From assembly GCA_934096125.1 (NCBI GenBank), contig CAKOLB010000004.1:55117-119116 (forward strand): a stretch of DNA of 64,000 bases. The letters are read 5' to 3'. Position 1 is the stretch's first letter; every line of letters begins with the position of its first letter. Of the stretch, positions 42,090-63,133 are shown in pieces. The position numbers and the translations under genes were made by a program. The stretch comes from an uncultured Bacilli bacterium. Its GTDB lineage: Bacteria > Bacillota_I > Bacilli_A > RF39 > UBA660. The notes beneath the pieces are model-generated. The model ran no database searches. It worked only from the letters and a program-made list of their open reading frames with translations, and was not told the DNA's origin.

Positions 42090-42200
42090 AGATGGTAATA
42101 GTTGAAATAGCATAAGGTGCTAAGCAGATAAAACAATGTTAAATAATTTTTGGGATATTTCGTTTTTTGAAAAAAGGCATATAATATCTTAGGTGATAAC

Positions 42201-42247
42201 ATGAATGATAGAGCTTTAAAAAAGGTGGTTTTGGATGCCGGACATGG
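42201..42247 (+). pseudogene. split Amidase_3-LysM hydrolase gene, segment 1 of 3
   Basis: ATG 42201 encodes MNDRALKKVVLDAGHG. The frame then enters unrelated sequence and stops at TGA 42270-42272. Confidence 0.8.
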
Positions 42248-42269
42248 GAGATACTGTTATTCTACACAA
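42242..42269. repeat. attL of element 1 (core ACATGG plus P' arm TTATTCTACACAA)
   Basis: TTATTCTACACAA (42257-42269) is the exact inverted complement of TTGTGTAGAATAA at 50551-50563. Confidence 0.7.
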
Positions 42270-42317
42270 TGAATAGAAACTATCAGAACTAGTTGATTTA
42301 CATGAAAATTAAACTTT

Positions 42318-42345
42318 AAAGAGATATTTGAAAAAGTATCTCTTT
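42318..42345 (+). promoter_or_regulatory. perfect 9-bp inverted repeat upstream of mob (candidate oriT hairpin or insulating terminator)
   Basis: AAAGAGATA-N10-TATCTCTTT followed by TTGCATATT, 29 nt before the mob start. Confidence 0.3.
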
Positions 42346-42373
42346 TTGCATATTAAAAAAAAGGGGGAATTAT

Positions 42374-43633: not shown

Positions 43634-43699
43634 GTCAAAACAAAAACGGACTTTTTTCGTGGTATAATAAAGAAAAACTTGTTATTTTTGGAGGTAGTT

Positions 43700-45910: not shown

Positions 45911-46068
45911 TCTTTTTTGAAAAATGGATATATAAAGATACATTTTAGTAACACACTACGATATTGACAGAGCCAATAACGATGTGTGCCAAGGGGATTG
46001 TCCCTTTGGAAACCCTATTAGCTCTATCGCCACTTTCATTGCTAAAGCAACAAAACGTGCCACGAGCT

Positions 46069-46103
46069 AAAAAGACTGACAAAAATTAATTGTCAGTCTT
46101 TTC
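46069..46103. terminator. bidirectional hairpin terminator
   Basis: AAAGACTGACAA-N7-TTGTCAGTCTTT perfect 12-bp stem flanked by A and T runs. The stop of the minus-strand XRE gene lies in the loop. Confidence 0.65.
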
Positions 46104-46361
46104 TGATGGAATATCATCAAATAGTTGTCTGATGTCTATTCCTAAAGCATCAGCAAATTTACCTATGGTTTCTAATGTTGGAGTTTTATCAATGCTTAAG
46201 CATTCTAAATCTCGAACATATCCATGAGTCAGTTCAGTTAAATCAGCTAATTCTTGAAGTGTATAACCACGTATAAGTCTGTATTTTCGAATGTTTTTTC
46301 TAACTTGAATAGATAAAATTGTTTTTGAATATCTTCTCATAGAAGTTATACACCTCCTCAC
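46086..46361 (-). CDS. XRE-family HTH transcriptional regulator
   Basis: HTH region LIRGYTLQELADLTELTHGYVRDLE. 91 aa. Confidence 0.75.
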   Translation of the reverse strand: MRRCITSMRRYSKTILSIQVRKNIRKYRLIRGYTLQELADLTELTHGYVRDLECLSIDKTPTLETIGKFADALGIDIRQLFDDIPSEKTDN

Positions 46362-46448
46362 ATTTAAATTATTTCATAAAAATTTTAAAAAATATGTCGC
46401 CTGACAGAAGTTTTTGTGATATAATTAAAATGAAAGGAGACTGCTTTT

Positions 46449-46925
46449 ATGAAGAAATGCAAATATTGTCAAACTGAAATTGACTCAAAAGCAAAAATTT
46501 GCCCAAACTGTAAAAAGAAACAAGGTAAACCAAAATGGTTAATAGCTTTAATTGTTATTATTGTAATAATGATTATTGCATCTGTTGCTGGAGGTAACGA
46601 AGAGAATGCTAAGGAAGGAAATGTTTCAAACGGAGGTAATAAGCCAACAGAAAAATTTACTTATGAAGTAACAAAACAATATGCAGATGAATATGGTATG
46701 TCTTATTATATAGAAGGTAGTGTAAAAAATAATAAGGATAAAGATTATTCATATGTTCAAATTGAATTTGTTTGCTATGATGCAGAAGGCAATAACCTTG
46801 GAACTGCTATTGATAATACAAATAATTTACTAGGAAATCAGACTTGGAAATTTAAAGCAATGGCTATGTTTAGTGATGCTGAAACTGTTGATCATTGCGA
46901 TTATCATGAAATAACAAGCTGGTAA
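46449..46925 (+). CDS. zinc-ribbon / TM / FxLYD-like domain protein
   Basis: CKYC...CPNC ribbon, one TM, and an extracellular beta-rich domain with IEFVCYDAEGNNLG (FxLYD-like). Confidence 0.45.
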   Translation: MKKCKYCQTEIDSKAKICPNCKKKQGKPKWLIALIVIIVIMIIASVAGGNEENAKEGNVSNGGNKPTEKFTYEVTKQYADEYGMSYYIEGSVKNNKDKDYSYVQIEFVCYDAEGNNLGTAIDNTNNLLGNQTWKFKAMAMFSDAETVDHCDYHEITSW

Positions 46926-47035
46926 AATAGTTGGAAGTCTTTTTAAGACTTCTTTTTGTTAGATTTTTTTACCAAAATAGTCGTTTTATATTTGTTTTAT
47001 GTTATAATAATATTTAATGAAAAAAGGGTGGTTTT

Positions 47036-47335
47036 ATGTATCAATTATTGAGTTTATTCAGTTTTCTTATTAGGGCATATTTGTGTTATTGCACAATAGA
47101 TAATATTCCAATATTAGCTAATCCGATATTAAATAGTATTTTAGGGGAAGTAATATCCTTATATACTATTTTGTGGGCAATAAGTTATTTTGTTGTTGGA
47201 AGATTTTATGATAAAGGTTCTGAACCCTTGTTAGGTGTTATTTTATATTTTATTGTATATGTTGTAATTCTGGGAATTACATATTTATTGTTGTTATTAT
47301 TAACATATATTGGAGTTTTACCAATAGTTATATAA
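47036..47335 (+). CDS. small hypothetical membrane protein
   Basis: 99 aa with three hydrophobic segments. No family recognised. Confidence 0.4.
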   Translation: MYQLLSLFSFLIRAYLCYCTIDNIPILANPILNSILGEVISLYTILWAISYFVVGRFYDKGSEPLLGVILYFIVYVVILGITYLLLLLLTYIGVLPIVI

Positions 47336-47364
47336 ATAAAAAAACTTATCGTTGTGATAAGTTT

Positions 47365-47904
47365 TTATAGGTTTATTCTATCATCAGGTAATTTTGAGTA
47401 ATCATATTTTTCAGCACACATTTCTAAATCTTCGTAAATAGAGGTTAATTGTGCTAATATTTTTTCGGGTGGAAGTAATTCTTTATAATAATCATAATCT
47501 TTAAGTAAAAGCATCATTTGGAATATTCTTGTTCTGCAATCAGCAACTTTAGTTCTTTTCTCATAAGAATCTTCTAATAAATCCAATTGAGATTCTCTAT
47601 ATTGTTTTACTAATTCCTTTATATTTTTAGGAGTTTTATGTTTTGAAGTGTCTTTGAAACTATCTAGAATATCACTATAACCAGCAGTAGTTAAAAGAAA
47701 TTCTAAACTTATTTCTAATACTTCAGATAAACTTCTTAACATATCTATATCTGGTTTTTTAATATTACCTTTTTCAAGTTCATTATATGTAGAGTGATGT
47801 GTATTGATTAAACGAGCTACTTTTCTTTGAGAGTAGCCTTTTTTTGTTCTAGCAGTCCTTAATATTTTACTTAATTCTTCAAGATTAGCATTATTATTTT
47901 CCAT
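47365..47904 (-). CDS. XRE-family HTH regulator with C-terminal extension (element repressor candidate)
   Basis: HTH region KKGYSQRKVARLINTHHSTYNELEKGN. Divergent from the HTH_36-like ORF across an operator-bearing intergenic region. Confidence 0.7.
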   Translation of the reverse strand: MENNNANLEELSKILRTARTKKGYSQRKVARLINTHHSTYNELEKGNIKKPDIDMLRSLSEVLEISLEFLLTTAGYSDILDSFKDTSKHKTPKNIKELVKQYRESQLDLLEDSYEKRTKVADCRTRIFQMMLLLKDYDYYKELLPPEKILAQLTSIYEDLEMCAEKYDYSKLPDDRINL

Positions 47905-47971
47905 TTAAACCACCTCTAAAATGCTTTCTTCCAATAACATAATACCATAACGAAAATTAAAAAGCAATAAT

Positions 47972-48037
47972 TTTGTCGGTTATTCTTGACAAAATTATAA
48001 TTACAATGTATATTATAGTTGTCGGGCAATCTTGACA
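47972..48037. promoter_or_regulatory. two copies of a 20-bp operator-like site overlapping -35 elements
   Basis: TTGTCGGTTATTCTTGACAA (47972-47991) and TTGTCGGGCAATCTTGACAA (48018-48037). Each is a TTGTC...GACAA inverted repeat containing TTGACA. The first TTGACA has a 17-nt spacer to TATATT. Confidence 0.5.
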
Positions 48038-48134
48038 AAAAAGGGGGATAGTAATAAAGTAGATTGCTAATGCGACTAATGTTCTTTGAAAATTTACACA
48101 AGTCTTTAAAGGTTAATTAAAAGGGGGTGATAGC

Positions 48135-48638
48135 ATAACAGAATCTATAAAAGATGGGTTTTGGATTATACCTGCAAAAGTAGGTATAGATGATGCACTC
48201 ACATTACAAGATAAATTACTATATGCTCAAATCTTATCATTAACAAGACAAGATGGATTCTGTTTTGCTACTAATTCTTATCTATCTAATTTAAATAATG
48301 TTACTCCAAAAACAATTTCTAACAGTATTTCTAATCTTAAAAAAAATAATTATATACGAGTTGAATATCACAAGGAAAAAATAAATAAAGATAAAAGAAA
48401 AATATTTGTAACTGATAAGGGGGTATGGAAAACAAATCCTGGGGATATAGAAAAAAATGTTAATACCGGTATGGAAGATAATTTCCAATATAATAATATA
48501 AAGAATAAAAAGATAAAAAAATATAATACCAATAATAATGTTCCTTGGTGGCTAGATAAAGAAATTAAAGAAAATCCTGCATCTCTAGAAGAACAAGCAG
48601 AGATGGAAGCACTACTAAGCGAATTTAAAAAAGATTGA
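48135..48638 (+). CDS. HTH_36-type winged-helix protein (plasmid/ICE replication- or regulation-associated), no canonical start codon
   Basis: The frame is open from 48117 to TGA 48636-48638 and encodes ...WIIPAKVGIDDALTLQDKLLYAQILSLTRQDGFCFATNSYLSNLNNVTPKTISNSISNLKKNNYIRVEY. The strong SD AAGGGGG (48121-48127) lies 7 nt before ATA 48135. The first in-frame ATG/GTG/TTG is not until about 48470. Confidence 0.55.
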   Translation: MTESIKDGFWIIPAKVGIDDALTLQDKLLYAQILSLTRQDGFCFATNSYLSNLNNVTPKTISNSISNLKKNNYIRVEYHKEKINKDKRKIFVTDKGVWKTNPGDIEKNVNTGMEDNFQYNNIKNKKIKKYNTNNNVPWWLDKEIKENPASLEEQAEMEALLSEFKKD

Positions 48639-48714
48639 AAAGGAGTTGGTTTTATAAATAAATACAAGACTAAATCATAAAATTTAATAAAAAGGAAAAG
48701 GGGGAATTATAAGA

Positions 48715-48846
48715 ATGGAGGTAGTACTTAAGGCAAAACACACATTTAAAACTGATATATCAAACGAAGAATTATTTAGAGATAGATTTAACGAGATATT
48801 GTTAAAAGTTATATTGCATCTTGAGCAAAATTACCAAAGTAGTTAA
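48715..48846 (+). CDS. small ORF (43 aa) immediately upstream of recombinase 1
   Basis: ATG 48715 preceded by AAAAGGGGG. Encodes MEVVLKAKHTFKTDISNEELFRDRFNEILLKVILHLEQNYQSS. Too short to appear in the track. Confidence 0.35.
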   Translation: MEVVLKAKHTFKTDISNEELFRDRFNEILLKVILHLEQNYQSS

Positions 48847-48937
48847 AAAAATTATAAATAACTATCAAAAAGGGGTATAATATAAGTTGTAGTCGATTTA
48901 GTTCTGATAGTTATACACAGAATTGGAGGATATAACT

Positions 48938-50533
48938 ATGAGACTAAGAGTTGGTATTTATGGGAGGTTATCACAAGAGGATATAGATAAGATAAACAAA
49001 GAAGATGAAAGTGAAAGTATCCAAAATCAAAAAAGAATGTTATTAGAGTATGCTTTAAAAAATGATTGGGATGTAGTTGATATTTATATTGATGAAGATT
49101 ATTCAGGTGCTGGAGTTTATAGACCAGAGTTTGAGAGAATGCTAAAAGATTGTGAAAATGGAAAACTAGATATAGTTTTATGTAAGAGTCAATCAAGATT
49201 CTCGAGAGATATGGAAATAATTGAAAGATATATAAATAACAAATTTAAAGAATGGAATGTTAGATTTATTAGTTTAGTAGATAATATAGATACTGATAAT
49301 AAATCTAATAAGAAATCTATTCAAATATTAGGACTAACTAATGAATGGTATTTAGAAGATTTATCAGATAACATTAAAAGAACAATTAGGAATAAAAAAG
49401 AGTCTGGACAATTTACTGGTTCATTTGCTCCCTATGGTTATTTAAGAAGTGAAGAAGATAAACACAAATTAGTTATTGATCCTATTGCTTCAATCATTGT
49501 TAAAAAGATATTTGAAATGTATAAACAAGGTAATGGTTATACTAAAATAGCAACTTATTTGAATGATACTAATGTTCCTAGTCCTTATGAACACAAAAAA
49601 GCAAGTGGTAGTAAATTTGTATGTGGAAATGTTGGAAAGGAAAAATCATATTGGTATTCAGATACAATTGCTAAAATCTTAAAAGATGAAGTATATATTG
49701 GAAATCTAGTACAAGGAAAAACAAGGCATATAAGTTATAAAAATAAAAAATCAGTTCCTGTTCCTAAAGAAGATTGGATAATTGTTAAAAACACACACGA
49801 ACCTATAATAGATGAAGATACTTGGAATATAGTTTCTGCTAAATTTAAAGGTAGGACAAAGCCAAGTAAATCTGGGGAAATTCATATGTTTACTAAAAAG
49901 GTTTATTGTGATTGTTGCAAAAAAATATTTTATAATGGTTATTCTAAATCAGGAAATGGGAACAAGCATTATTATTTAACTTGTAAGTCTAGAAAATCAG
50001 GGGTGTTTTGTGAAAATAATCTATCTATTAGAGTAGATAAATTAAAAGACTTTATCCTTAATGAGATTAATGAATATATCAAAGTTTATCATAATTCTAA
50101 AGCTTTAAATGAGAAATACCAAAAATTAAATACTAAGAATAATAAAAATGAGATTCAAGAACAAATTAAAACTTTGGAAAAACAACAAACTGAATTAGAA
50201 AAATCACAAAGTAAAAAGAATTCTTATTTAAGAAAATTATATGAAGATAGAATAGAGGGTTTCATTACTGATGAGCAATACAAAGCTTTTAGTAAAGACT
50301 ATGATGATGAATTAAATGAATTGCAAAACAGAATTCAATTAATAAAAGATGAAATCACTCTCTTAAATCAAAGGCACAGTGATATGATTGATAGAGATAA
50401 AATATTTAATAAATATAAATCTATAAAGGAATTAGATAGAAGTATATTAGATGATTTTATAGAAAAAATATATATCGGTGCAGTAGATAAAGAAACGAAT
50501 GAACGAGAAATAAATATTGTATGGGCCATATAA
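48938..50533 (+). CDS. large serine recombinase (resolvase domain, recombinase domain, zinc ribbon, coiled coil)
   Basis: VGIYGRLSQED catalytic-Ser motif, SIQNQ, YIDEDYSG, and SRFSRD. Cys cluster CDCC...C...C. C-terminal coiled coil with FIEKIYIG...REINIVW (DUF4368-like). Start at ATG 48938 behind GGAGG. Confidence 0.9.
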   Translation: MRLRVGIYGRLSQEDIDKINKEDESESIQNQKRMLLEYALKNDWDVVDIYIDEDYSGAGVYRPEFERMLKDCENGKLDIVLCKSQSRFSRDMEIIERYINNKFKEWNVRFISLVDNIDTDNKSNKKSIQILGLTNEWYLEDLSDNIKRTIRNKKESGQFTGSFAPYGYLRSEEDKHKLVIDPIASIIVKKIFEMYKQGNGYTKIATYLNDTNVPSPYEHKKASGSKFVCGNVGKEKSYWYSDTIAKILKDEVYIGNLVQGKTRHISYKNKKSVPVPKEDWIIVKNTHEPIIDEDTWNIVSAKFKGRTKPSKSGEIHMFTKKVYCDCCKKIFYNGYSKSGNGNKHYYLTCKSRKSGVFCENNLSIRVDKLKDFILNEINEYIKVYHNSKALNEKYQKLNTKNNKNEIQEQIKTLEKQQTELEKSQSKKNSYLRKLYEDRIEGFITDEQYKAFSKDYDDELNELQNRIQLIKDEITLLNQRHSDMIDRDKIFNKYKSIKELDRSILDDFIEKIYIGAVDKETNEREINIVWAI

Positions 50534-50550
50534 TTTAGTCCATACAGGAC

Positions 50551-50580
50551 TTGTGTAGAATAAACATAACCTCCACATGG
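50551..50580. repeat. attR of element 1 (P arm TTGTGTAGAATAA plus core ACATGG)
   Basis: Lies 18-47 nt after the recombinase stop. The arm is the inverted repeat of 42257-42269, and the core is identical to 42242-42247. Confidence 0.7.
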
Positions 50581-50806
50581 TGGTGATGATCCGGGGACTA
50601 TTGCAAATGGAATAACTGAAAAAGATTATACTTTGAAGATAACAAATTATATTCACAACAGATTAGATGAACTTGGAGTGCCAAATAAATTATCGAGGAG
50701 TACTGATGAGACTTTAGATGCCAGTAGTAGGCCACAGAGAATACAAAGTCTTTATGGAAATGGGAGTGATGTGATTGTTGTGTCTAATCACATAAATGCA
50801 GGGGGA
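50581..50806 (+). pseudogene. split Amidase_3-LysM hydrolase gene, segment 2 of 3
   Basis: Continues in frame from segment 1: (G)GDDPGTIANGITEKDYTLKITNYIHNRLDELGVPNKLSRSTDETLDASSRPQRIQSLYGNGSDVIVVSNHINAGG. It then diverges and stops at TAA 50816-50818. Confidence 0.8.
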
Positions 50807-50828: not shown

Positions 50829-50928
50829 ATCGTAGGCGCAGTGTATAACTTTAATAAGCTTCTTATTTTACTGTATATGATGGTATAATAGATATATCAA
50901 ATAACTTTAAAGATGAGAGGTGAAAAGA

Positions 50929-51840
50929 ATGTTATATATAACTGGTGATACTCATGGAGATTTTTATAGATTTGGTCATTTAGGATTAAATGAAGGTGAT
51001 ATTATGATTATCTTAGGGGATGTGGGTATTAATTATTACTTAGATGAATATGATAAAAAGTTAAAGGAAAGATTAAAAAGATATAATTTTAAATTTTTCT
51101 GTATTCAAGGTAATCATGAAAAAAGACCAGAAAATATTTCAAGTTACCACGAAGTGGAAATGTTTGGCGGTAAAGTATTTGTAGAAGATGAATATCCTAA
51201 TTTAGTATTTGCTAAAAATGGAGAACTTTATAATATTGATGACAAAAGTATTTTAGTAATAGGTGGAGCTTATTCTATTGATAAAGATTATAGAATAAGT
51301 AAAGGATATCCTTGGTTCAAAGATGAACAATTAACTGAGAAAGAGAGACTAAATATATTGGACGAGTATTCTGGTAAACATGTGGATATAATTTTATCTC
51401 ATACTTGTCCATTAAGATATGAACCTAAAGAAAGCTTTAAATTAAGTTTGCCACAGATTGCGATAGATAAATCTATGGAGTATTTTCTAAATGAAGTAGA
51501 GCAAAGAGTAGATTATGGTAAATGGTATTGTGGACATTATCATTTAGAAAAAATTGTGGACAAGTTAGAGTTTATGTTTGGAAGAATTAAAAGTGTTGAC
51601 ACAGGAGAATTTATTCCTAAATATGATTTCCATAATGGCTACAAAATAGTTAGAGATGTATGTAGTCAAAAAGATTATAAATATTGTCCTGAATGTAAAG
51701 GAGATAATATAATTATAGAAAAAGGTGAAGGACATAATATTAATGGTTTAGATTTTATTGCTATCATTTGTAATGATTGTAAAAAAGTTTATGGATTTAA
51801 TGATGTTAATTATAAACGTAATTGTCCTAAAGAATTGTAA
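50929..51840 (+). CDS. calcineurin-like metallophosphoesterase with C-terminal zinc ribbon
   Basis: GDTHGD, GDVG, and QGNHE motifs, plus SHTCP. C-terminal CPECKG...CNDCKK. Confidence 0.7.
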   Translation: MLYITGDTHGDFYRFGHLGLNEGDIMIILGDVGINYYLDEYDKKLKERLKRYNFKFFCIQGNHEKRPENISSYHEVEMFGGKVFVEDEYPNLVFAKNGELYNIDDKSILVIGGAYSIDKDYRISKGYPWFKDEQLTEKERLNILDEYSGKHVDIILSHTCPLRYEPKESFKLSLPQIAIDKSMEYFLNEVEQRVDYGKWYCGHYHLEKIVDKLEFMFGRIKSVDTGEFIPKYDFHNGYKIVRDVCSQKDYKYCPECKGDNIIIEKGEGHNINGLDFIAIICNDCKKVYGFNDVNYKRNCPKEL

Positions 51841-51914
51841 CTGTGTTTACCAAATTTTAAAATTTATGCTATAATTAAGATGTAATAATTATTTGACTAA
51901 GTGTGGTGAGTAGT

Positions 51915-52550
51915 ATGGAGTATAGAAAATATTCATTTAGACATGCAGAAGATATTTTTAAAAACGATAAGGATTTTACTTATTTATGGAATGAAATTTT
52001 GGAAGTGCTTGATAGTATAAGCGATGATGATTTAATTAATGAATTTAACATTGAAACTAGAAAAGCAAAAAGCATTTCCGAAGCAATTAATAAATTAATT
52101 GCAAAAAGGCTAAGTGAAAAAGGATGGCATGAACAAAGTTACATTTTTGCTGACCCTGATTATTCTGATAATAAAGGTACATGGAGATTAGATTTTGCAA
52201 AAGATAATATTGCAATTGAAGTTGCATTTAATCATGGAGGAAATGTATCTTGGAATTTAATTAAGCCAGTATTATCTAGTGAATTAAATCATGTTAAAAA
52301 GGCAATACAAACTCAAGCTGGCGTTGTCATAACAGCAACTGATGCTATGAAAAAAGCCGGTGGATTTGATAATGCTATCGGTACCTATGAAAAATATGTT
52401 GAATATCTAAAACCATTAAATAATTTGTTAACCACACCTATGATGATAATAGGATTAGAACCACCAAAAAAGTTTACTATTGAGCAGAAAAAAGAAGATG
52501 GTAAAATGGTTGGACATGTTAAATTAAAAGAAGAAGATAATAACTTTTAG
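51915..52550 (+). CDS. BglII/BstYI-fold restriction endonuclease-like protein (orphan)
   Basis: WRLDFAKDNIAIEVAFNH...SSELNH...GVVITAT...TYEKY...MMIIGL parallels the BglII core DIDFGKRDTLVEVQFSN...SELFH...IIITK...LVGL as I recall it. The D-x8-E spacing is kept, but the E-V-Q glutamine position is Ala. Confidence 0.55.
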   Translation: MEYRKYSFRHAEDIFKNDKDFTYLWNEILEVLDSISDDDLINEFNIETRKAKSISEAINKLIAKRLSEKGWHEQSYIFADPDYSDNKGTWRLDFAKDNIAIEVAFNHGGNVSWNLIKPVLSSELNHVKKAIQTQAGVVITATDAMKKAGGFDNAIGTYEKYVEYLKPLNNLLTTPMMIIGLEPPKKFTIEQKKEDGKMVGHVKLKEEDNNF

Positions 52551-53069: not shown

Positions 53070-54467
53070 TTAAATAAATTCTTTTAATATATTTTCTAAG
53101 TATTTACTATTTAACCAAAAACAATGCTTTGTATATTCAGCTAATCCTGTTAACTTGTCTTTTACAGGTAATGGCAAAGTATCTTTTGAGTCTCTAGCAT
53201 GTGGTCTAACATGGCAAACTCCATTATCCCCGATTCCTGGAAAGTTAGTATTTCTTTTACCCATATTATCAATTGATTTAATAATATTTCCAGATAAAAT
53301 AATGTTTTTTGTATTATTCCACATATTTTTCACTTCATTTTCAAGTGTTAGTTCTGGCATGTTCCATAATTTTATACCACTAAAGATATAATCATTATCT
53401 TTCTTTTTAAATATAAAGAACATGTATTTTGTAGTTTCTAATTCTTCTTTTAACTTTGATTCTTCCCAATCAGTTGTTTTAAAATCCATATAATTGAAAT
53501 ATGGAAAAGGCATAGATTCTTTAATGTGTCCATTTTCTTCAACTCTGATTGTTCTTGGAACTATATTTGCTTTTTGGAATTCATCAGTATCACGAAGTCT
53601 AGATTTAACATTAAACATTCTAGCTATCAGTATTCCATTTAAATTTTTTGCATTAGAATCAATATTAAATTCATGCATTAATTGTTTTTGAGTTTTCCCC
53701 TGATATTTCTTGGTAACATTTTCAACAAATTCAGTAAATGATTCACCAGCATTTTTAATAACTTTTTCAACATCTTCATAATTTCCAATATATTTTCTAA
53801 CGAGTCCTGTCATATAAGAAGTTTTTAAACAAAATGCTCTTTGCTTTGCTTTAATTGATGAAAAAGGTTGTTCTCTAACGGATTTTTTATTTGCTCCTTT
53901 TGTACAAGCACCAAGATACATTGTATCTGCTTCTGATATCTCATGGGCTTTTCCTTGTTTAATTTTATTAATTATTGTTTCCCAATCCTTAATAATTATT
54001 GGTAAATCTTCTTTTGGAAATGTAAATAATAACTCGTGTGTTATTCTTAAATCATTTTTATTTTTGTGAGGTTCGTAAAAATACCAAATTATTTGAATTT
54101 TATTATTTTTAAACCAAAAATGACTAGAGTAAAATTCATTTTTATATTCATCCATATAATTAATTATGTTTAGAACAAGTCTTTCTTTAGCTGATAAAGT
54201 ATTGTCTTTGTTTTTCTTATACGGTGTAACTTTAAGTTCTATTCCCGCATCAATAAAGTCAGGCGCAGATATTGAATTAATGTTGTATCCATATACATTA
54301 GTTTCAAATAAATGACCAAAGAAAGCTTTATTAAACTTTTCATCATCTTTGTTATATTCATTGTTATAAATAGTTGTTACATTCATATTATTTAATTCTT
54401 TAAAAGTTTTTCCTAATGCACTTTTAGCTAAAATTTGAATTTCATCTTTTGTGTAACTTTTTGCCAT
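53070..54467 (-). CDS. MutH/Sau3AI-family type II restriction endonuclease
   Basis: N-terminal MutH-like core APDFIDAGIELKVTP (D...E-x-K). The size fits the two-domain Sau3AI type. Divergently paired with a C5 methyltransferase. Confidence 0.7.
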   Translation of the reverse strand: MAKSYTKDEIQILAKSALGKTFKELNNMNVTTIYNNEYNKDDEKFNKAFFGHLFETNVYGYNINSISAPDFIDAGIELKVTPYKKNKDNTLSAKERLVLNIINYMDEYKNEFYSSHFWFKNNKIQIIWYFYEPHKNKNDLRITHELLFTFPKEDLPIIIKDWETIINKIKQGKAHEISEADTMYLGACTKGANKKSVREQPFSSIKAKQRAFCLKTSYMTGLVRKYIGNYEDVEKVIKNAGESFTEFVENVTKKYQGKTQKQLMHEFNIDSNAKNLNGILIARMFNVKSRLRDTDEFQKANIVPRTIRVEENGHIKESMPFPYFNYMDFKTTDWEESKLKEELETTKYMFFIFKKKDNDYIFSGIKLWNMPELTLENEVKNMWNNTKNIILSGNIIKSIDNMGKRNTNFPGIGDNGVCHVRPHARDSKDTLPLPVKDKLTGLAEYTKHCFWLNSKYLENILKEFI

Positions 54468-54636
54468 AAAAATTTCCTTTCGATCTTGTTTTTATCTCAA
54501 AAATAATTTAAAATATATATATAGTGTTGATCTTTTTAAAATATTATTTTATAATTAATATGTAAGAAGTTGATCTTTTCGCTTAAATATATTATAATAT
54601 ATTTAAATATGTTTAACAATTATTAGGAGGCGTTTT

Positions 54637-55875
54637 ATGCAAAAAACAGTAGTAGAATTATTTGCCGGTGTTGGTGGATTTAGATGTGGATTAAATAATG
54701 TAAAATTAAAAGATAATAAAGTTATTGAAAAAGGTAATTGGAATTTTGTGTGGGCGAATCAATGGGAACCTTCTACTAAAACACAAGAGGCTTTTGAATG
54801 CTATTCAAAAAGATTTGGAAAGGATGATGTTAGTAATGTAGATATATTTCAAGTAAATAAAAAAGAGATACCTAATCATACTTTATTAGTTGGTGGTTTT
54901 CCATGTCAAGATTATTCTGTTGCACAGACACTATCTAATAGCAAAGGAATTGATGGAAAAAAAGGTGTTTTGTGGTGGGCAATTGCAGATATATTAAAAG
55001 TTAAGAAACCTCCATTTGTGTTTTTAGAAAATGTTGATCGCTTACTTCTTTCGCCAGCGAGTCAAAGAGGCAGAGATTTTGGAATAATTTTGAGAAGTTT
55101 TTATGAAAATGGATATGATTTAGAATGGCGAGTTATCAATGCGGGAGAATATGGATTTCAACAAAAACGTAGGAGAATTTATATAATTGCATATCACAAA
55201 TCAACTAAATATTGTAAGAAAATGAGAAAAATTGATAAGAAAAATATATTACTTAAGGAAGGTATTTTCATAAAACAGTTTCCTGTAAAAGAGAAAGAGT
55301 TTAACTCAAATGTATCAAGTATTTCAGAATATAAAGATTTAGTCGATGTTAGTGATAATTTTAAAAACCAATTTTATAATTCTGGAGTTATGATAAATGG
55401 TGAAATATATACTGCCAAATTAGAACATAATTGCGATAGTGTATATCAGTTAGGCAATTTAATAGAAACTAATAAGGTTGATGAAAAATATTTCCTTTCA
55501 AAAGATAGAATTGAGAAATTTAGAATATTAAAGGGAAGTAAAAGAATACCTAGAAAAAAGCCAAATGGAGATGATTACATTTATTCTGAAGGTTCAATGC
55601 CATTTCCTGATAATCTAAATGTTCCTGCTAGAACAATGCTGACTTCAGAAAGTGGAACTAGCAGAATGACACATGTTATAGAGGACTATAGAACTAAAAA
55701 ATTAAGATTTTTAACACCATTAGAGTGTGAAAGAATTAATGGATTTCCAGATAATTGGACAAATACTGGGATGAGTGATAAGAAACGATATTTCATGATG
55801 GGTAACGCTTTAGTAGTAAATGTTGTTGAAAAAATAGGGATTGAATTGGAAAAAATAGTAGAAATGGAAGAGTAA
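54637..55875 (+). CDS. DNA (cytosine-5)-methyltransferase, Sau3AI-type (GATC specificity inferred)
   Basis: Motif I ELFAGVGGF, motif IV GGFPCQDYS, motif VI LENVDRLL, motif VIII QQKRRRIYIIA, and motif X GNALVV. WANQWEPS and SPASQRGRDF resemble M.Sau3AI-like enzymes. Confidence 0.85.
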   Translation: MQKTVVELFAGVGGFRCGLNNVKLKDNKVIEKGNWNFVWANQWEPSTKTQEAFECYSKRFGKDDVSNVDIFQVNKKEIPNHTLLVGGFPCQDYSVAQTLSNSKGIDGKKGVLWWAIADILKVKKPPFVFLENVDRLLLSPASQRGRDFGIILRSFYENGYDLEWRVINAGEYGFQQKRRRIYIIAYHKSTKYCKKMRKIDKKNILLKEGIFIKQFPVKEKEFNSNVSSISEYKDLVDVSDNFKNQFYNSGVMINGEIYTAKLEHNCDSVYQLGNLIETNKVDEKYFLSKDRIEKFRILKGSKRIPRKKPNGDDYIYSEGSMPFPDNLNVPARTMLTSESGTSRMTHVIEDYRTKKLRFLTPLECERINGFPDNWTNTGMSDKKRYFMMGNALVVNVVEKIGIELEKIVEMEE

Positions 55876-55984: not shown

Positions 55985-56950
55985 GTGGTAGTATTGGATT
56001 CACTTAATTATGAAGTTTTTAAAAAAATAAAGAAATATTATAATGATAATTGCAAACCTTTAATTTTTGTTGGAGAAAAATTATTATCGCAGAATAACAA
56101 ATGTAAAATGTATTTTTGTGATGTTGATTTAAATCAAGAAAAAGAAAATTATAGAAAAGTTTTTCAAGAATATTTGGCACTTTATGTTAGAAATCATGAT
56201 TTGCTAAAATATTATGATAAGATTATAAAAAGTGAAACAGAAGATGAAATTTCAGAAGCTTTAATTTATTATGGAAATGATTTGTGGAATAATACCGTAT
56301 TGATAACTACAACTACACCAGAGACTTTAGGGATATATGGAGAAGCCATTAATGATTTTTATTTAAATATTGTTAAGAATGAAAATATAATTATCACTTA
56401 TTCAGCAAAAAGGGGGTATGGTGAACGTAATATAAAAGGGGTAGATGTAGTTGCATGTACTTGGAAAAAAGATAATCTTGTACTAATATTTTCTGAGTGT
56501 AAATTTGTCGAATCAATATATAAGGCGTCGTGTGGTTTATATAATGATATAAAGGGAACTCAATATGAATTGGCACATATAAGTAAAGATTATATAAACG
56601 GATATTCTACTTATATTGTTGATAATGCTCATTCAATTTTTGCAGAGAGTAATAATTCAGATAAAATTATAGATGTTTTGGACAAATTGAATAGTAGGAT
56701 AATAAATGGAAACAAGGCGATAGATGTGTTTAATGAATTAAACATAAAAATTCAATTTAATTTCTTTGCAATTTACTGTGATAATAAATTTACACCAGAT
56801 GAAAGACAAATAATGTTTGAAAAAGTATATAATGCTTTTTATGAAAATGTAAAATTAACAGGTATTAAAAATTATGATATGGAAATTGTGTATATACCTA
56901 TTAAAAATACAAGCTCTGTGGTAAAGGAATGTATGAGACAATGGAATTGA
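55985..56950 (+). CDS. HamA-like (DUF1837-type) PD-(D/E)xK nuclease candidate, first gene of a Hachiman-like pair
   Basis: 321 aa, with GVDVVACTWKKDNLVLIFSECKF giving a D...E-x-K arrangement. Overlaps the downstream helicase gene by 22 nt. Confidence 0.5.
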   Translation: MVVLDSLNYEVFKKIKKYYNDNCKPLIFVGEKLLSQNNKCKMYFCDVDLNQEKENYRKVFQEYLALYVRNHDLLKYYDKIIKSETEDEISEALIYYGNDLWNNTVLITTTTPETLGIYGEAINDFYLNIVKNENIIITYSAKRGYGERNIKGVDVVACTWKKDNLVLIFSECKFVESIYKASCGLYNDIKGTQYELAHISKDYINGYSTYIVDNAHSIFAESNNSDKIIDVLDKLNSRIINGNKAIDVFNELNIKIQFNFFAIYCDNKFTPDERQIMFEKVYNAFYENVKLTGIKNYDMEIVYIPIKNTSSVVKECMRQWN

Positions 56951-59322
56951 CACGAAATACAATTGTAAAGAAAATAAATTTATTTTCAATGGAAAGGAAT
57001 AATAAAGAATTAATAAATCTACTATGTGATATTTTAGAAAGTAAAAATTACATGGATAATTATGATCTTATTTTAATTATAATAAATATTGCCGAACTTT
57101 ATGGTTATCAAGAATTTTTTAATAATTTTGATGCAAATAGTATACCTAAATATAACGTGCATGCAATATCTAATGATATTAGAAAAAATCTATATAAAAG
57201 CAAAAAAGGTAATAATATATATTATAATTCTGGACAATTATCTTTATTAAAAGAATTATCACTATATGATAAGCTTTTTATATCAGCTCCCACGTCATTT
57301 GGTAAAACCAGTTTAGTTTTAGAGCATATAGCAATGAATAACTCAATATATAAAACTATTATTTTTTTAGCTCCAACTAATGCATTAGTAGAAGAATTGT
57401 ATCTAAAATTTTTAAAATTAAATAAAGAATGTAATTTAAATTATGATGTAATAACAATGCCAAAAAATAAAAATAATAATACAATATGGATATTAACACC
57501 AGAGAAATTTTTACTTTTGGTTGAAGAAAAAAGTATAGATTTTGATTTGATAGTTATGGATGAGGCTTATAAAATTGAAAATGAAGAATCAATTGATAGA
57601 AAAGATATTTTAAATTCTAGGTCAAGCAAATATAGGAAAGTAATGGAATATATGGCTAATTCTAATTCGAAGATTATATTTTTATCTCCATATACTTATA
57701 ATAAGGCGCCATCTATGACAAGATTCTTAAAAAAATATAGTATCAAGGATATTGACAGGAATATTAATTATGTAAAAAAAGACATAATAGATATTTATGA
57801 TAGCAAAAGTTATAAAAGTAATTTTTCCAATAGTATATTTAGTATTAAAAAAGGTGATTCTGGGATTAAAAAAGCAATGGCAGCTGTTCCCTATTTATCT
57901 GATAATACAATTATATATGTAAAATATCCAAGTGAGGCAATAAAAGTTTTAGAATTAATGCCTAATGAAAAAGCAAGTATAGATAATGAAAGATTTAAAA
58001 AATTTTTGAACCATTTAAAAGAAAATTATTTATTTGAAGACAGCAATTGGTATATTATAGATGCTCTAGAAAAGGGAATTGGCATATATGTATCACCTAT
58101 TCCTCGATATATAAAAAAAGAAATAATATATTTATTTAATAAGGGAATAATAAAAAAACTTATAGTTACAACTGCATTTGCTGAAGGAGTTAATAGTTCA
58201 GCTAAGAACATAATTATAACAAATAGAATAACAGGATCTAATAAAAAACTAACTAATTTGGATATATTGAATTTAAGTGGTAGAGCAGGCAGATTTGGTG
58301 TATATAGCAAAGGAAAAGTTTTTTCTGCAGTTGAAGAAGTAAGTGATATTTTAAGAAAATCATCTGAAAATGGAGTAATTATAAATAATCCTAATTACGA
58401 ATTAGCAAGTGATATTATACCTAGAACTGATTATGAAATCGATATGATAGATGATTATCTATTAAATGAAGAAGAAAAAAATATAAAGGAAACCACAAAA
58501 AAAAGGCAATTAAATTTTAATTTGACCAACGATGATTTAAATATAGCTTTATCAATTGCAAATGAAATAAAAATCGATGTATATTCATATTTTTTTGAAA
58601 CAATTAACAATGGAAAAATTCAAGATATAAGATTTAATAATATTAAAAATTTATTGTCTACAGAGAAAAATGATATTATAAAATCAATTACATTTATTTT
58701 TAACGAATTAAAAAATGCAGATATTCCAATAGTTTCAGATTTTGGTGATATTAATCCATTTAATAGTAAAGGTGATTTTATTTGGGGCATTTTTTACGGA
58801 ATCCACTCTTCAGGAAATATTAGAGATGTTTTGAAATCAAGAAAAGGCTTTATTTTAAAACAGTTAAGTGAAATTGAAAAAATATTAAATTTAAAACTTA
58901 AAAATTTTAATAATAAAGAAATAGAAAAAATATTACGTGAGTACGATAAAAAATGGATATACGATTATTTAACTAAAGGTGAAATTGATGATGCAAAACT
59001 ATATAATGGTGCATTTAAATTTATATCAAACATAATTGAATATAGAATACCATTTTATATTGGATTGTATATATCAGTTTTTAAAATGTTTTGTAGAAAG
59101 AATAATTTAAATTATGATTTTAATTTTGATATTGTTGAAATATCTACATCATTAGAAAATAAAAATATAGAAAAAAAGTATTCTGATATGTTGGAATTTG
59201 GCATACCATTAGATACAATCAAAAAGATAAATAAATTTAAAAATGATAATAATATTTTTGAAATATTAGATGATTATGAAAAAATTATGTTAAGTGAATA
59301 TAATTACTATTTTGATAAATAA
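56929..59322 (+). CDS. HamB-like SF2 (Ski2/Hel308-like) helicase
   Basis: Motif I SAPTSFGKTS, Ia LAPTNALVEE, II VMDEAYK, V TTAFAEGVN, and VI LSGRAGRFG. 797 aa with a long C-terminal domain. Confidence 0.6.
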   Translation: MYETMELTRNTIVKKINLFSMERNNKELINLLCDILESKNYMDNYDLILIIINIAELYGYQEFFNNFDANSIPKYNVHAISNDIRKNLYKSKKGNNIYYNSGQLSLLKELSLYDKLFISAPTSFGKTSLVLEHIAMNNSIYKTIIFLAPTNALVEELYLKFLKLNKECNLNYDVITMPKNKNNNTIWILTPEKFLLLVEEKSIDFDLIVMDEAYKIENEESIDRKDILNSRSSKYRKVMEYMANSNSKIIFLSPYTYNKAPSMTRFLKKYSIKDIDRNINYVKKDIIDIYDSKSYKSNFSNSIFSIKKGDSGIKKAMAAVPYLSDNTIIYVKYPSEAIKVLELMPNEKASIDNERFKKFLNHLKENYLFEDSNWYIIDALEKGIGIYVSPIPRYIKKEIIYLFNKGIIKKLIVTTAFAEGVNSSAKNIIITNRITGSNKKLTNLDILNLSGRAGRFGVYSKGKVFSAVEEVSDILRKSSENGVIINNPNYELASDIIPRTDYEIDMIDDYLLNEEEKNIKETTKKRQLNFNLTNDDLNIALSIANEIKIDVYSYFFETINNGKIQDIRFNNIKNLLSTEKNDIIKSITFIFNELKNADIPIVSDFGDINPFNSKGDFIWGIFYGIHSSGNIRDVLKSRKGFILKQLSEIEKILNLKLKNFNNKEIEKILREYDKKWIYDYLTKGEIDDAKLYNGAFKFISNIIEYRIPFYIGLYISVFKMFCRKNNLNYDFNFDIVEISTSLENKNIEKKYSDMLEFGIPLDTIKKINKFKNDNNIFEILDDYEKIMLSEYNYYFDK

Positions 59323-59636: not shown

Positions 59637-60209
59637 ATGGAATTTAAGTCAATGGAGAAGTGGCGTGTTTTACAGAAGTTTAAAATTAGCGAAAAACAGT
59701 ATAAGAGATTAGTGAAAAGATTAAAAAGAAGACATCCTAATGAAAGATGGATTGATGAACATTTTGCTCAAAATGGTGAAAGAGTAGTATATCTAAAATT
59801 AGAATTTGTAGAATGGATAGAAGAAGTTTATTTAAATAACAATCTATTTTATTTAGATGCTGAAATTGTTTTCTTTAAAAAGCAAATATTAAGACTAGAA
59901 GATGAATTAAATTTTCCTCATAGTGGGTTTGAATATGAAGATATATCTTTAAAAGATTTAAGGGAGTATTTTAATAAGAGTAAAGATGTGATAGGTGTTG
60001 CAATAAATAGAATGGAAAAGAGAAATGATAAATCATTCAAGTATATAAAAGATGCTAAAGTTATGATTAATAAAGAAGGCGTTAAATGGTTAAGTGAAAA
60101 CTATTTCCGTAAAGATTATTTAAAAAAGTTAGAATTTTATAAATTAGAACTTCAAAATGTTAAGAGAAAAAGAAATAGATTAAAAGAATATAGTATTTTC
60201 TATTACTAA
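59637..60209 (+). CDS. hypothetical basic protein (190 aa), element-encoded
   Basis: GGAG RBS before the ATG. K/R-rich N-terminus (KQYKRLVKRLKRRHPNERW) and a K/R-rich C-terminal tail. No family recognised. Confidence 0.5.
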   Translation: MEFKSMEKWRVLQKFKISEKQYKRLVKRLKRRHPNERWIDEHFAQNGERVVYLKLEFVEWIEEVYLNNNLFYLDAEIVFFKKQILRLEDELNFPHSGFEYEDISLKDLREYFNKSKDVIGVAINRMEKRNDKSFKYIKDAKVMINKEGVKWLSENYFRKDYLKKLEFYKLELQNVKRKRNRLKEYSIFYY

Positions 60210-60463: not shown

Positions 60464-62089
60464 GTGTATAACAATGTAATACAAGCACCAAGTTTTTATA
60501 GAGTAGGTATATATATCAGATTATCAGAAAGTGATGAAGATAAAACTTATGAGTCAGAGAGTGAAAGTATAATCAATCAAAGAAATTTATTAATGGATTA
60601 TGTAAAAATGAGTGGATTTACTTTGGTTGATGAGTATGTAGATGATGGATTTACAGGAACTAACTTTGATAGGCCTTCTTTTCAAAGATTATTAAAAGAT
60701 ATTGAAAGTGGTCGAATCAATTGTGTAATCACAAAAGACTTATCAAGATTAGGTAGAGATTATATTCAATGTGGATATTATGTAGAACAATATTTTCCAC
60801 AAAAGAAAATTAGATATATTTCTATACTAGATCAAGTTGATACATTTCTAGAAAGTGCTAATAATGACATTGCTCCATTTAAAGCTTTGTTTAATGATAT
60901 GACTAGTAAGGATACTTCTAAGAAGATTCGTTCAATATTAAAAAATAAAAAAGAACAGGGTAAATTTATTGGAAGCAAACCATGTTATGGATATATGAGA
61001 GATCCACTTGATAAAGGACATTTAATACCCAATCCAGAAGTTGCTCCTGTTGTTAAAAGGATATTTAAAATGGCTCATTCTGGAACTGGAGTAAGTGATA
61101 TAGTATCATACTTAAATGATAATAAGATATTAAGCCCTAGTATGTATAAAAATACTAAATCATCTTCAAGACAAAAAGTGAATGTATGGACAATATCCTC
61201 AGTCAACAAATTACTAAAAAATAGAATGTATACAGGAGATATGGTACAAAATGTTCAAACTAAGTTAAGTTATAAATCTCAGAAGAAAGTTGCTTTAGAA
61301 AAAGAGTTTTGGATAATAGTTGAAAATACTCATGAACCTCTTGTTAGTAAAACAGTATTTGAAGCAATACAAAATGCTCCTGCTAGAGTAAGGACAACCC
61401 ATTGTAATAGAGAAAAAAGATTATTAGAAAATCTTCTTGTTTGCAAAGAATGTGGAAACTCTTTAAGCGTTCTTTATAGAAAAAATAAAAATTATAAGGG
61501 TGGAAAGTATTGGAGTGTTAATTGCAATAAATATGCAAGAGATCCAAGAAGACATTTGTGCTATCCACACTTCTTTCCTTATGATAAACTAGAAGAAAAA
61601 ATAATGAGTGTTATTAAAACTACTTGTCAAAAATATTTAGATAGTTTAAATATCAAAGAATTATCTGAAAGAGTATTACAAGATAGAGCAAAGGAAAAGA
61701 ATGATAGGCAAAAGGAAAAGCAACAATTATTAAATGAGATTGATGAATTAAAAAGAAAATCTGATGCTTTATATGATGACAAATTTAATGGAATAATAAG
61801 TGTTGATACTTATACAAGAATCTCTGCACAAACTGAAAAACAAATATCAGCCTTAAATTATAGAATTTATGAAATAGATAATGAAGAAAATCAGATTAAA
61901 GAAGATACAAAAGAAATAACTAAATATGAAGAACAAATAAAATCACTTTTAAATTTAGATGAACCCAACAGAGAACTCATAAAAACTTTAGTAAAAAAAA
62001 TTTATATAGATAAAGATAGAAATATAGAAATTCAATATAGATTTAAGGTGCTAGATGATATAAAAACTAATTATGAAGAAATAAATTAA
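60464..62089 (+). CDS. large serine recombinase (second, distinct copy)
   Basis: VGIYIRLSESDED catalytic-Ser motif, SIINQ, YVDDGFTG, and LSRLGRD. Zinc ribbon CKECG...C...C. C-terminal coiled coil with LVKKIYID...IEIQYRF. Confidence 0.9.
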   Translation: MYNNVIQAPSFYRVGIYIRLSESDEDKTYESESESIINQRNLLMDYVKMSGFTLVDEYVDDGFTGTNFDRPSFQRLLKDIESGRINCVITKDLSRLGRDYIQCGYYVEQYFPQKKIRYISILDQVDTFLESANNDIAPFKALFNDMTSKDTSKKIRSILKNKKEQGKFIGSKPCYGYMRDPLDKGHLIPNPEVAPVVKRIFKMAHSGTGVSDIVSYLNDNKILSPSMYKNTKSSSRQKVNVWTISSVNKLLKNRMYTGDMVQNVQTKLSYKSQKKVALEKEFWIIVENTHEPLVSKTVFEAIQNAPARVRTTHCNREKRLLENLLVCKECGNSLSVLYRKNKNYKGGKYWSVNCNKYARDPRRHLCYPHFFPYDKLEEKIMSVIKTTCQKYLDSLNIKELSERVLQDRAKEKNDRQKEKQQLLNEIDELKRKSDALYDDKFNGIISVDTYTRISAQTEKQISALNYRIYEIDNEENQIKEDTKEITKYEEQIKSLLNLDEPNRELIKTLVKKIYIDKDRNIEIQYRFKVLDDIKTNYEEIN

Positions 62090-62218: not shown

Positions 62219-63133
62219 GGTGGCGATGGTGCAGAAGTAATATATGCTCTTAGAAATAATGATGTATTTGCAAGTAAAATTGCAAGAGAACTAGAGAGTG
62301 CAGGACAAAATATTAGAAAATATTATCAGAGAAGACTTCCAAGTAATCCAGCGAAAGATTATTATTATATAATGCGAGATACTCCTAATAATGAAACTGT
62401 AATTGTAGAGTATGGGTTTGCAGATTCTACTGGTGATGATGTTGAGCAGTTAAAAAATACTTGGGAAAACTTAGCAGAAGCGGTGGTTAAAGCAATTACT
62501 GAGTATGCTGGCGGTACTTATACACTTCCAAATACGGGCAATTATTACATAGTTAAAAGTGGTGATAGTCTATGGAGCATATCCAAAAAAACAGATGTTT
62601 CTATTGCCAAGATTAAGGAACTTAATAATCTTAAGAGTAATTTGTTAAGTATTGGTCAGAAATTAACATTACCACAAACAAGTGAAGATACCCCATCGCT
62701 AGATACATATATTGTTCAAAAAGGCGATAGTTTATATAAAATCGCTAACAAGTTTAATACTACTGTTGATAACTTAAAACTTATTAACAATCTTCAAAGC
62801 AATAATTTAGCTATAGGTCAAAAATTAAAGGTAAGTAGTAGTGAAAACAAATACACAGTGCAAAAAGGTGATACACTATACAGCATTGCCACTAAATTTT
62901 CTGTTAGTGTAGATTCATTAAAAAACGCTAATAATTTAGTTAGTAACACAATTGCCGTTGGTCAATCCTTAATTATCCCAGAACAAAAAACAACTAAAAC
63001 TTATACGGTTCAAAAAGGCGATAATCTTTATAGCATAGCAAGGCGATATAATACGACTGTAAATACAATAATGTCTTTAAATAATCTAGCTTCAACTAAT
63101 TTAACTATCGGTCAAAAGCTACTTGTTCCGTAA
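62219..63133 (+). pseudogene. split Amidase_3-LysM hydrolase gene, segment 3 of 3 (end of the Amidase_3 domain plus four LysM repeats)
   Basis: The frame of ORF 62372..63133 is open upstream to 62216 and reads GGGDGAEVIYALRNNDVFASKIARELESAGQ...YYYIMRDT...VEYGFADS. Four Y-x-V-x-x-GD-(S/T/N)-L-(Y/W)-x-I-(A/S) LysM units follow. Confidence 0.8.
62543..63130 (+). repeat. four tandem LysM domain-coding repeats
   Basis: YYIVKSGDSLWSISKK..., TYIVQKGDSLYKIANK..., KYTVQKGDTLYSIATK..., TYTVQKGDNLYSIARR..., each ending in IGQKL or VGQSL. Confidence 0.85.

Follow-up and report, generated by a model that had tools for sequence, protein, structure and literature searches.

Background

The Sau3AI restriction-modification (R-M) system of Staphylococcus aureus 3A combines a two-domain nuclease of ~490-509 amino acids with a methylase that produces 5-methylcytosine (m5C), and its two genes lie in tandem. 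Here, we describe a pair of the same family in a stretch of 64,000 nucleotides (the window, to which all coordinates refer) from an uncultured Bacilli bacterium, corresponding to positions 55,117 to 119,116 of contig CAKOLB010000004.1 (assembly GCA_934096125.1). The nuclease gene (R; 53070-54467, minus strand) encodes a protein of 465 amino acids that shares the two-domain architecture of Sau3AI and is 34% identical to it; unlike the Staphylococcus genes, R stands in divergent orientation to its m5C methylase gene (M; 54637-55875, plus strand), across a 169-bp spacer (54468-54636). The pair is carried on an 11.4-kb integrative element, hereafter element 2 (~50806-~62218).

Several relatives of Sau3AI have been characterized. 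The methylase M.Sau3AI makes GATm5C (PMC3287169), and DpnIII, which is 34% identical to Sau3AI, as is R, has been found experimentally to cut GATC and is partnered by a methylase that likewise makes GATm5C, a cytosine methylation that blocks Sau3AI, BglII, and BamHI (PMC4471560). GATC is the common target of Sau3AI, LlaKR2I, DpnIII, and the repair protein MutH, although these have diverged to a similar extent (PMC4471560). LlaKR2I from a Lactococcus plasmid, DpnIII from pneumococcus PMEN1, and Sth368I from ICESt1 of S. thermophilus—an integrative element (PMC5812530, PMC4176335)—are all Sau3AI-like GATC systems with an m5C methylase, found in Firmicutes on mobile DNA, and in these respects they resemble the window pair as we interpret it. 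The carrier differs, being in the window a small serine-recombinase element inserted in an amidase gene rather than a plasmid or a conjugative element. In the literature searched, neither a GATC-bearing promoter cassette nor a second nuclease, both of which we predict for the window locus, is mentioned for these three systems.

For the layout of genes and promoters, the nearest parallel is instead CfrBI of Citrobacter freundii, where the recognition site lies in the -35 box of the methylase promoter and its methylation weakens sigma binding, such that polymerase turns to the overlapping nuclease promoter (bioRxiv 10.64898/2025.12.04.692298; PMC3874152). The window locus resembles CfrBI in its divergent nuclease and methylase genes, in having no C protein, and in the predicted placement of its own site in a methylase -35 box with an overlapping nuclease promoter. 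The enzymes themselves are unrelated—CfrBI uses an m4C methylase, recognizes CCWWGG, and comes from a Gram-negative host—and CfrBI has a single site, as opposed to two or three in tandem promoters here, where the regulation is predicted.

The explanation that accounts best for the locus, and in which we place considerable confidence as a whole, is that of a Sau3AI-type R-M system equipped with a promoter switch, carried on a mobile element, and accompanied by a second nuclease. The separate parts of this explanation differ in strength, as set out below.

A Sau3AI-family nuclease and its methylase

The product of R matches the NCBIfam equivalog model restrict_Sau3AI (NF040973) with 497.3 bits against a cutoff of 300, residues 6-462 covering positions 3-475 of a model of 475. 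Structural comparison agrees: Sau3AI itself (PDB 4pxg) aligns with residues 7-460 (E=2.7e-68), and the isolated Sau3AI C-terminal domain (PDB 2reu, 7xm0) aligns with residues 259-460 (E=2e-18). The protein is thus composed of an N-terminal MutH-like catalytic domain, matched by the Pfam MutH family over residues 59-161 (104.8 bits), and a Sau3AI-type C-terminal effector domain. An earlier first-pass annotation of this DNA, made from the sequence alone, had already recognized a MutH/Sau3AI catalytic core and a two-domain size in this protein, and both observations are borne out by the family model and the two structural alignments. The peptide on which it relied, APDFIDAGIELKVTP, occupies residues 68-82 and supplies the catalytic residues D70, E77, and K79; these form a PD-(D/E)XK core (P69-D70-F...E77-L-K79) that falls within the Pfam MutH match, aligns with the catalytic segment of Sau3AI (the crystal form of which has Ala at the Glu position), and is invariant at D70, E77, and K79 across 11 homologues. 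We also considered whether R might be a repair MutH. With the MutH equivalog models it reaches only 68 and 44 bits, where the cutoffs are 243 and 230, respectively; this argues against such an identity, as does the additional Sau3AI C-terminal domain, and we rejected it.

The divergent partner encodes a C5 cytosine DNA methyltransferase of 412 amino acids, matched by PF00145 (221.6 bits), TIGR00675 (253 bits), and the PADLOC model MTase_II PDLC03329 (550 bits). Motifs I (FAGVGG, residue 9), IV (GFPCQ, 87), VI (ENV, 131), VIII (QKRRR, 176), and X (GNA, 389) are all in place, as the first-pass annotation had reported in calling the enzyme complete, and motif IX (RFLTPLE, 357) can be added to them. 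Motif I begins at residue 9, and the protein is without an N-terminal helix-turn-helix extension. Its relatives in the PDB are of the HhaI/HaeIII type only and match over the catalytic half.

Both open reading frames lie exactly where that annotation had placed them, divergently arranged, and its assignment of the pair to the Sau3AI type is confirmed by the family models and structures. The layout itself is conserved: among 80 loci with R homologues (56-73% identity) taken from species-representative genomes, nearly all of those with a long enough left flank have M and R in divergent orientation. An identical R is encoded on at least 47 public contigs and an identical M on 37, from which it follows that the genes are not assembly artefacts. 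By sequence, the pair reads as an intact and ordinary member of a well-known enzyme family.

Mobile elements often carry solitary methylases (PMC4176335), and one or both genes could in principle be inactive remnants, for example a surviving methylase beside a dead nuclease. We consider this highly improbable, given that both open reading frames are full length when compared with hundreds of homologues, that catalytic residues and motifs are intact, that identical proteins occur on dozens of contigs from different hosts, and that the R gene is free of GATC. An active GATC R-M system is, in our judgement, very likely.

Probable recognition of GATC

By homology, the pair would be of type IIP/IIE, with M making GATm5C and R cleaving unmethylated GATC, a cleavage that GATm5C would block. 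Two signals in the DNA itself point in the same direction. The first is depletion of the site. The first-pass annotation had proposed a genome-wide count of GATC; our count covers the 64-kb window, and at this scale the tetramer is depleted, with 44 occurrences vs ~145 expected under a maximal-order Markov model (0.30 of expectation). The deficit is seen in each part of the window—30 vs 91 in the chromosomal portion, 9 vs 26 in element 2, and 5 vs 20 in a second inserted element nearby (element 1, described below)—and the R gene contains no GATC at all.

The second signal is the opposite trend in the spacer between R and M. Element 2 has nine GATC sites, and three of them fall within these 169 bp (Poisson P=2.4e-4 at the density of the window). 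Across 68 non-identical homologous spacers, GATC reaches 14.35/kb, vs 0.66/kb in the genes and flanks (~22-fold), and 63 of the 68 have at least two sites. Among spacer tetramers, only two Shine-Dalgarno words are more over-represented. A control region that hoards GATC in hosts that otherwise avoid it provides good, if indirect, evidence for GATC recognition.

What weighs against this assignment is that specificity is argued from 34% identity to Sau3AI and from indirect sequence signals. The closest relatives of R on annotated plasmids and phages are at best 42-47% identical and include no characterized enzyme, and for M the evidence is indirect, namely its pairing with Sau3AI-like R genes. 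These observations would also fit a pair of the Sau3AI family with a recognition sequence or a methylated base other than GATC and GATm5C. Set against such a shift are the retention of GATC by LlaKR2I, DpnIII, Sau3AI, and MutH at similar divergence (PMC4471560), the threefold depletion of GATC in both host and element DNA, and the status of GATC as the sole non-Shine-Dalgarno tetramer strongly enriched in control regions of the family. In addition, the nuclease that can take the place of R as partner of the methylase (see below) has a fold whose solved members all recognize NGATCN. We regard a different specificity as very unlikely.

The control region between R and M

The spacer holds three GATC sites (54482-54485, 54529-54532, and 54572-54575), and each lies in or beside the -35 box of a predicted methylase promoter on the plus strand. 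The distal promoter (54482-54514) has GATC directly 5' of TTGTTT (54486-54491), followed after 17 nt by TAAAAT (54509-54514); read from sequence, it is a weak match to consensus. Promoter 2 (54527-54555) and the proximal promoter 3 (54570-54598) each consist of TTGATC, 17 nt, and TATAAT, such that GATC is embedded in the -35 box itself, and both score 10/12 in a promoter scan. On the minus strand, a promoter for R is predicted at 54619-54591 (TTGTTA, 17 nt, TATAAT; also 10/12). Its -10 box (54596-54591) overlaps that of promoter 3 (54593-54598) on the opposite strand of a palindrome, ATTATAAT.

These features recur in relatives of the locus. The positions of the GATC sites are conserved across the homologous spacers, and TTGATC-N16-18-TAnnnT is present in 64 of the 68, the R-strand TTGT box with the shared -10 in 61, and the full composite in 50. 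The promoter 2 module is found in about half of the relatives and is missing as a unit from the rest. The distal module (GATC-TTGnnn-N17-TAAAAT) is retained upstream of M in two loci that have no R start nearby (L108, L112). More distantly, the motif TTGATCTT occurs upstream of M in Priestia, Lactiplantibacillus, and Clostridium tagluense plasmid systems, whatever their gene order, with R proteins only 37-42% identical to that of the window. The whole promoter block is also kept when the neighbour of M is another nuclease gene, either preceding M or facing it. Judging from these comparisons, the block goes with the methylase and not with R.

We propose that M would be read from two or three tandem promoters, each with its own GATC in or beside the -35 box. 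The palindromic -10 is common to the proximal M promoter and the R promoter, and RNA polymerase would thus use one of the two at a time, their use being mutually exclusive. In a naive cell, where sites are unmethylated, the methylase promoters would win and the genome would be protected first; M would then methylate or occupy its own promoter sites, lowering its transcription and freeing the R promoter. By analogy with CfrBI, methylation may thus both lower transcription of M and raise that of R. A switch of this kind, dependent on methylation or on M, is the interpretation we lean towards, with a confidence slightly above even.

Several observations temper this proposal. The promoters were predicted by consensus in DNA of very high AT content, where the scan returned 32 promoter-like sites vs 25.9 expected by shuffling, and the 68 spacers share descent, such that the counts given above overstate their independence. 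In some relatives TTAATC replaces TTGATC at one position. One locus (L064; CANQBE010000014.1) has intact R and M genes with all three spacer sites changed from GATC to AATC or AATT, which indicates that the sites are not indispensable. Finally, the switch presupposes an effect of m5C at the -35 box on binding of Firmicute sigma-A.

The same GATC-site evidence would also be produced if the M protein (or R) simply sat on these sites and sterically blocked the methylase promoters, with the methyl mark itself without effect. There is precedent for methylases that bind and repress their own promoters (SsoII, Ecl18kI, and MspI, among others; PMC3874152). The lack of an N-terminal helix-turn-helix extension in M speaks against such an operator, because M would then have to bind through its catalytic site, a site that ordinarily turns over; we consider it rather unlikely. 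Methylation-dependent or M-dependent switching remains our preferred interpretation, and our literature search returned no description of a GATC-bearing promoter feature for Sau3AI-type systems, which is not proof that none exists.

A probable second nuclease gene on the same element

Upstream of R, element 2 encodes a probable restriction endonuclease of the BglII/BstYI/BamHI fold (R2; 51903-52550, plus strand), 215 amino acids long, or 211 if, as is likely, translation truly begins at the ATG at 51915. Neither this gene nor the GATC-bearing promoter cassette was mentioned in the first-pass annotation. R2 scores 45.2 bits against PF09195 (Endonuc-BglII; cutoff 26) and covers the full profile. 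A profile of R2 homologues matches BstYI (1sdo), with D97-X8-E106-V-A108 aligned to the BstYI motif D-X8-E-V-Q; D97 and E106 are invariant in the R2 family. The predicted structure (predicted local distance difference test score [pLDDT] 75.6, predicted template modelling score [pTM] 0.77) yielded 13 fold matches at E<=1.3e-4, all of them to BglII, BstYI, BamHI, or OkrAI, the next match having E=0.14, and identity to these enzymes is 12-21%.

BglII and BamHI have their own N4-cytosine methylases. The four enzymes of this fold all recognize hexamers with a GATC core and resemble R2 in family, in fold, and, for BstYI, in the D-X8-E-V motif; the difference lies in the partner, which for R2 and its relatives is a GATC-type C5 methylase that is sometimes shared with a Sau3AI-like nuclease. 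The sites of BglII (AGATCT), BstYI (RGATCY), and BamHI (GGATCC) contain the tetramer, and GATm5C DNA resists BglII and BamHI (PMC4471560).

We sampled ten diverse loci with R2 homologues. A C5 methylase of 405-414 amino acids lies within one gene of the R2 homologue in six of the ten, and four of these methylases are 69-72% identical to M of the window, where M is two genes away from R2. Cassettes of R2 and methylase alone, without a Sau3AI-like R, are divergent in L097 and L128, tandem in L108, and convergent in L112; trios of R2, M, and R are found in L102-L104 and L030; and in L111 a 50%-identical methylase lies one gene from the R2 homologue. In L097, a BglII-like gene occupies the position of R behind the same GATC-bearing spacer.

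Read most simply, these contexts suggest that R2 is probably a second restriction enzyme, directed at a GATC-core site and protected by the same methylase. Two findings count against this interpretation: at the third catalytic position R2 has Ala108 in place of the catalytic Gln of BglII and BstYI, and 3-4 of the ten sampled contexts have no methylase near the R2 homologue. With the fold prediction on one side and these findings on the other, we see the chances that R2 is an active nuclease covered by M as evenly balanced. The wider interpretation—a modular GATC cassette, in which one GATm5C methylase with a methylation-sensing promoter block would serve both Sau3AI-like and BglII/BstYI-like nucleases, both being present in the window—is tentative and somewhat short of an even chance. 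We hold with equal reserve its corollary, that the promoter block might accompany the methylase whether the genes are arranged divergently, in tandem, convergently, or as trios.

Two further observations concern R2. A 214-amino acid "restriction endonuclease" of Priestia megaterium that lies beside a Sau3AI-like R was examined as a possible R2 homologue and rejected, as the two are not homologous. Separately, among GATC sites surviving in the window, AGATCT occurs once, whereas the frequencies of flanking bases predict 6.3; the shortfall could be a hint of the hexamer preferred by R2, although the 44 sites are too few for a conclusion.

The carrier element and its integration site

To place the bounds of element 2, we aligned the window with eight contigs encoding an identical R (L001-L008). 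The left boundary (~50806) lies between GCAGGGGG and ACAGGACG, with the change-over immediately before ACAGG, and the right boundary (~62218) lies between TTCCGGAGG and TGGCGATGG, with the change-over between CCGGAGG and TGGCG. The element is identical in all eight contigs, and its flanks differ by 20-30% in L004, L005, and L006 (on both sides) and in L008 (on the left only), contigs that also carry different neighbouring genes. The same 11.4-kb element with diverged flanks implies that it sits in several hosts.

At its right end, element 2 encodes a large serine recombinase of 541 amino acids (60464-62089, plus strand) with Resolvase, Recombinase, and Zn_ribbon_recom domains; the nearest NCBIfam models are CcrB and XisF, both scoring far below their cutoffs. 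Its cargo runs in the order of a metallophosphoesterase gene, R2, a helix-turn-helix gene, R, M, a HamA/HamB-like pair, orf190, and the recombinase. The first of these (50920-51840, plus strand) encodes a calcineurin-like phosphoesterase of 306 amino acids with a Cys-rich C-terminal tail, and homologues with 65% identity stand beside the same type of R-M system in L031 and L040, without a BglII-like gene. Directly downstream of M is a Hachiman-like pair (55985-59322, plus strand), in which the match to the HamB helicase is strong (PADLOC, 237 bits) and that to HamA/DUF1837 is weak (18.6 bits, E=2e-4). Just upstream of the recombinase gene, orf190 (59637-60209, plus strand; 190 amino acids) matches no family. 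In L015, an 81%-identical recombinase is found together with a partial homologue of orf190 (63% over ~100 residues), and we consider orf190 a candidate directionality or regulatory factor.

Element 2 splits a gene for an Amidase_3 protein with four LysM domains, the insertion falling among the codons of the invariant NAGGGDGAE motif. The pieces of this gene lie at 42192-42240, 50575-50805, and 62219-63133, and removal of the inserted DNA in silico restores the reading frame (...HINAGGGDGAEV...), the three joined pieces aligning without gaps with intact homologues at 71-86% identity. The suggestion in the first-pass annotation that an excisable-looking element interrupts a gene is thus upheld, with sharp bounds and a restored amidase frame. 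Between the first and second pieces lies element 1 (~42240-50575), a Tn4451-like mobilizable element that splits the same gene at its DAGHGG codons and encodes a Mob_Pre relaxase (42374-43633), an AAA_13 ATPase of 743 amino acids (43679-45910), and a TnpX-like serine recombinase with a DUF4368 domain (48923-50533). Element 1 is absent from L001, L002, and L007.

Occupation of this gene appears to be the rule. It is intact in none of the ten same-species contexts shown, drawn from 24 contigs (L115-L124 and L004 among the loci), and no intact same-species amidase protein was found in a set of 5.8 billion proteins, where the best full-length matches are 70-73% identical. Other serine-recombinase elements are found at the two amidase sites, bearing SMODS/S_4TM (CBASS-like), Fic, and HipA genes or a different Mob_Pre, and L004 has a second recombinase element in tandem. 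The amidase gene is an integration hotspot for serine-recombinase elements with differing cargo. We accordingly picture the R-M module as riding, together with other putative defence genes, on a serine-recombinase element that would insert into the conserved Amidase_3-LysM motif.

In several respects, element 2 is reminiscent of skin-like elements and of SCC/Tn4451-type elements: a large serine recombinase at one end, precise insertion within a coding sequence, and a reading frame restored in silico. As with skin-like elements, its host has sporulation genes (yabG). It differs from these elements in that its target is no known sporulation gene, that it occurs in several hosts, and that other cargo is found at its site. 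Its presence in several hosts and the other elements at the site indicate an active mobile element and not a domesticated one.

Sporulation, excision, and post-segregational killing

The first-pass annotation had further proposed that the interrupted gene might be related to sporulation and that excision of element 2 would create a killing conflict in the cell or compartment losing it. The first of these ideas was not supported. CwlD and other known sporulation amidases were rejected as identities of the gene by the NCBIfam models, with CwlD scoring 61.5 bits against a cutoff of 221.55 and no sporulation equivalog passed; the only matches are generic LysM-domain ones. The host itself does carry yabG (5209-5985, plus strand; PF05582, 297 bits), which encodes a sporulation-specific coat protease and lies in a metG-tatD-ksgA-yabG neighbourhood, and on this basis the uncultured low-GC host probably forms spores. 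Related contigs carry CotE, GPR, and SpoIID genes.

In its broader form, the second idea makes the system chiefly an addiction module: were element 2 excised, as might happen during sporulation, the cell left without it would be killed or brought into conflict. In favour of this, element 2 has sharp bounds, encodes a serine recombinase, and on removal in silico leaves a restored reading frame; R-M systems are known to stabilize mobile elements by post-segregational killing (PMC4176335); and the chromosome retains ~0.7 GATC/kb, which would make killing possible. Several considerations run the other way. In a terminal mother cell, which does not divide, the excised circle would keep both genes and the methylase would go undiluted, such that no killing is expected; the proposed conflict fails on this point. 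Loss in dividing cells, in turn, would amount to ordinary post-segregational killing, the known stabilizing effect of R-M systems (PMC4176335), and to no new conflict. The amidase is not a recognized sporulation gene, and a same-species site that is always occupied, with cargo that varies, is more readily explained by an integration hotspot than by a developmental switch. Nor was excision seen in the collections searched: the predicted attB junction (AATGCAGGGGGTGGCGATGG) and attP junction (TCTTTCCGGAGGACAGGACGCGTAATATG) are both missing from JGI metagenomes, and attP from IMG/VR, a weak negative, as all known copies of the element come from assemblies in ENA, Logan, and NCBI. We consider addiction unlikely as the main role, and any such role would add to phage defence and not replace it.

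Significance

Taken by itself, the R-M pair is one more uncharacterized member of a well-known family, for which Sth368I already provides a precedent on an integrative element. Slightly above routine, and modestly novel, are the conserved cassette with GATC in its promoters and the probable use of a single methylase to protect against two unrelated nucleases.

If the promoter interpretation is correct, Sau3AI-type systems across an entire clade that is widespread in gut Firmicutes would time their expression through their own site, placed in the promoter of the methylase, a kind of timer demonstrated by experiment in very few cases (CfrBI, LlaDII). Natural variants with one, two, three, or no sites would then allow the timer to be studied. 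Should the BglII/BstYI-fold partner likewise prove correct, the locus would clearly exemplify the exchange or stacking of nucleases around an unchanged m5C methylase, and R2-type genes would be a source of new restriction enzymes with a GATC core. The amidase hotspot, with its interchanging defence cargo, is relevant to the movement of defence islands among uncultured gut bacteria.

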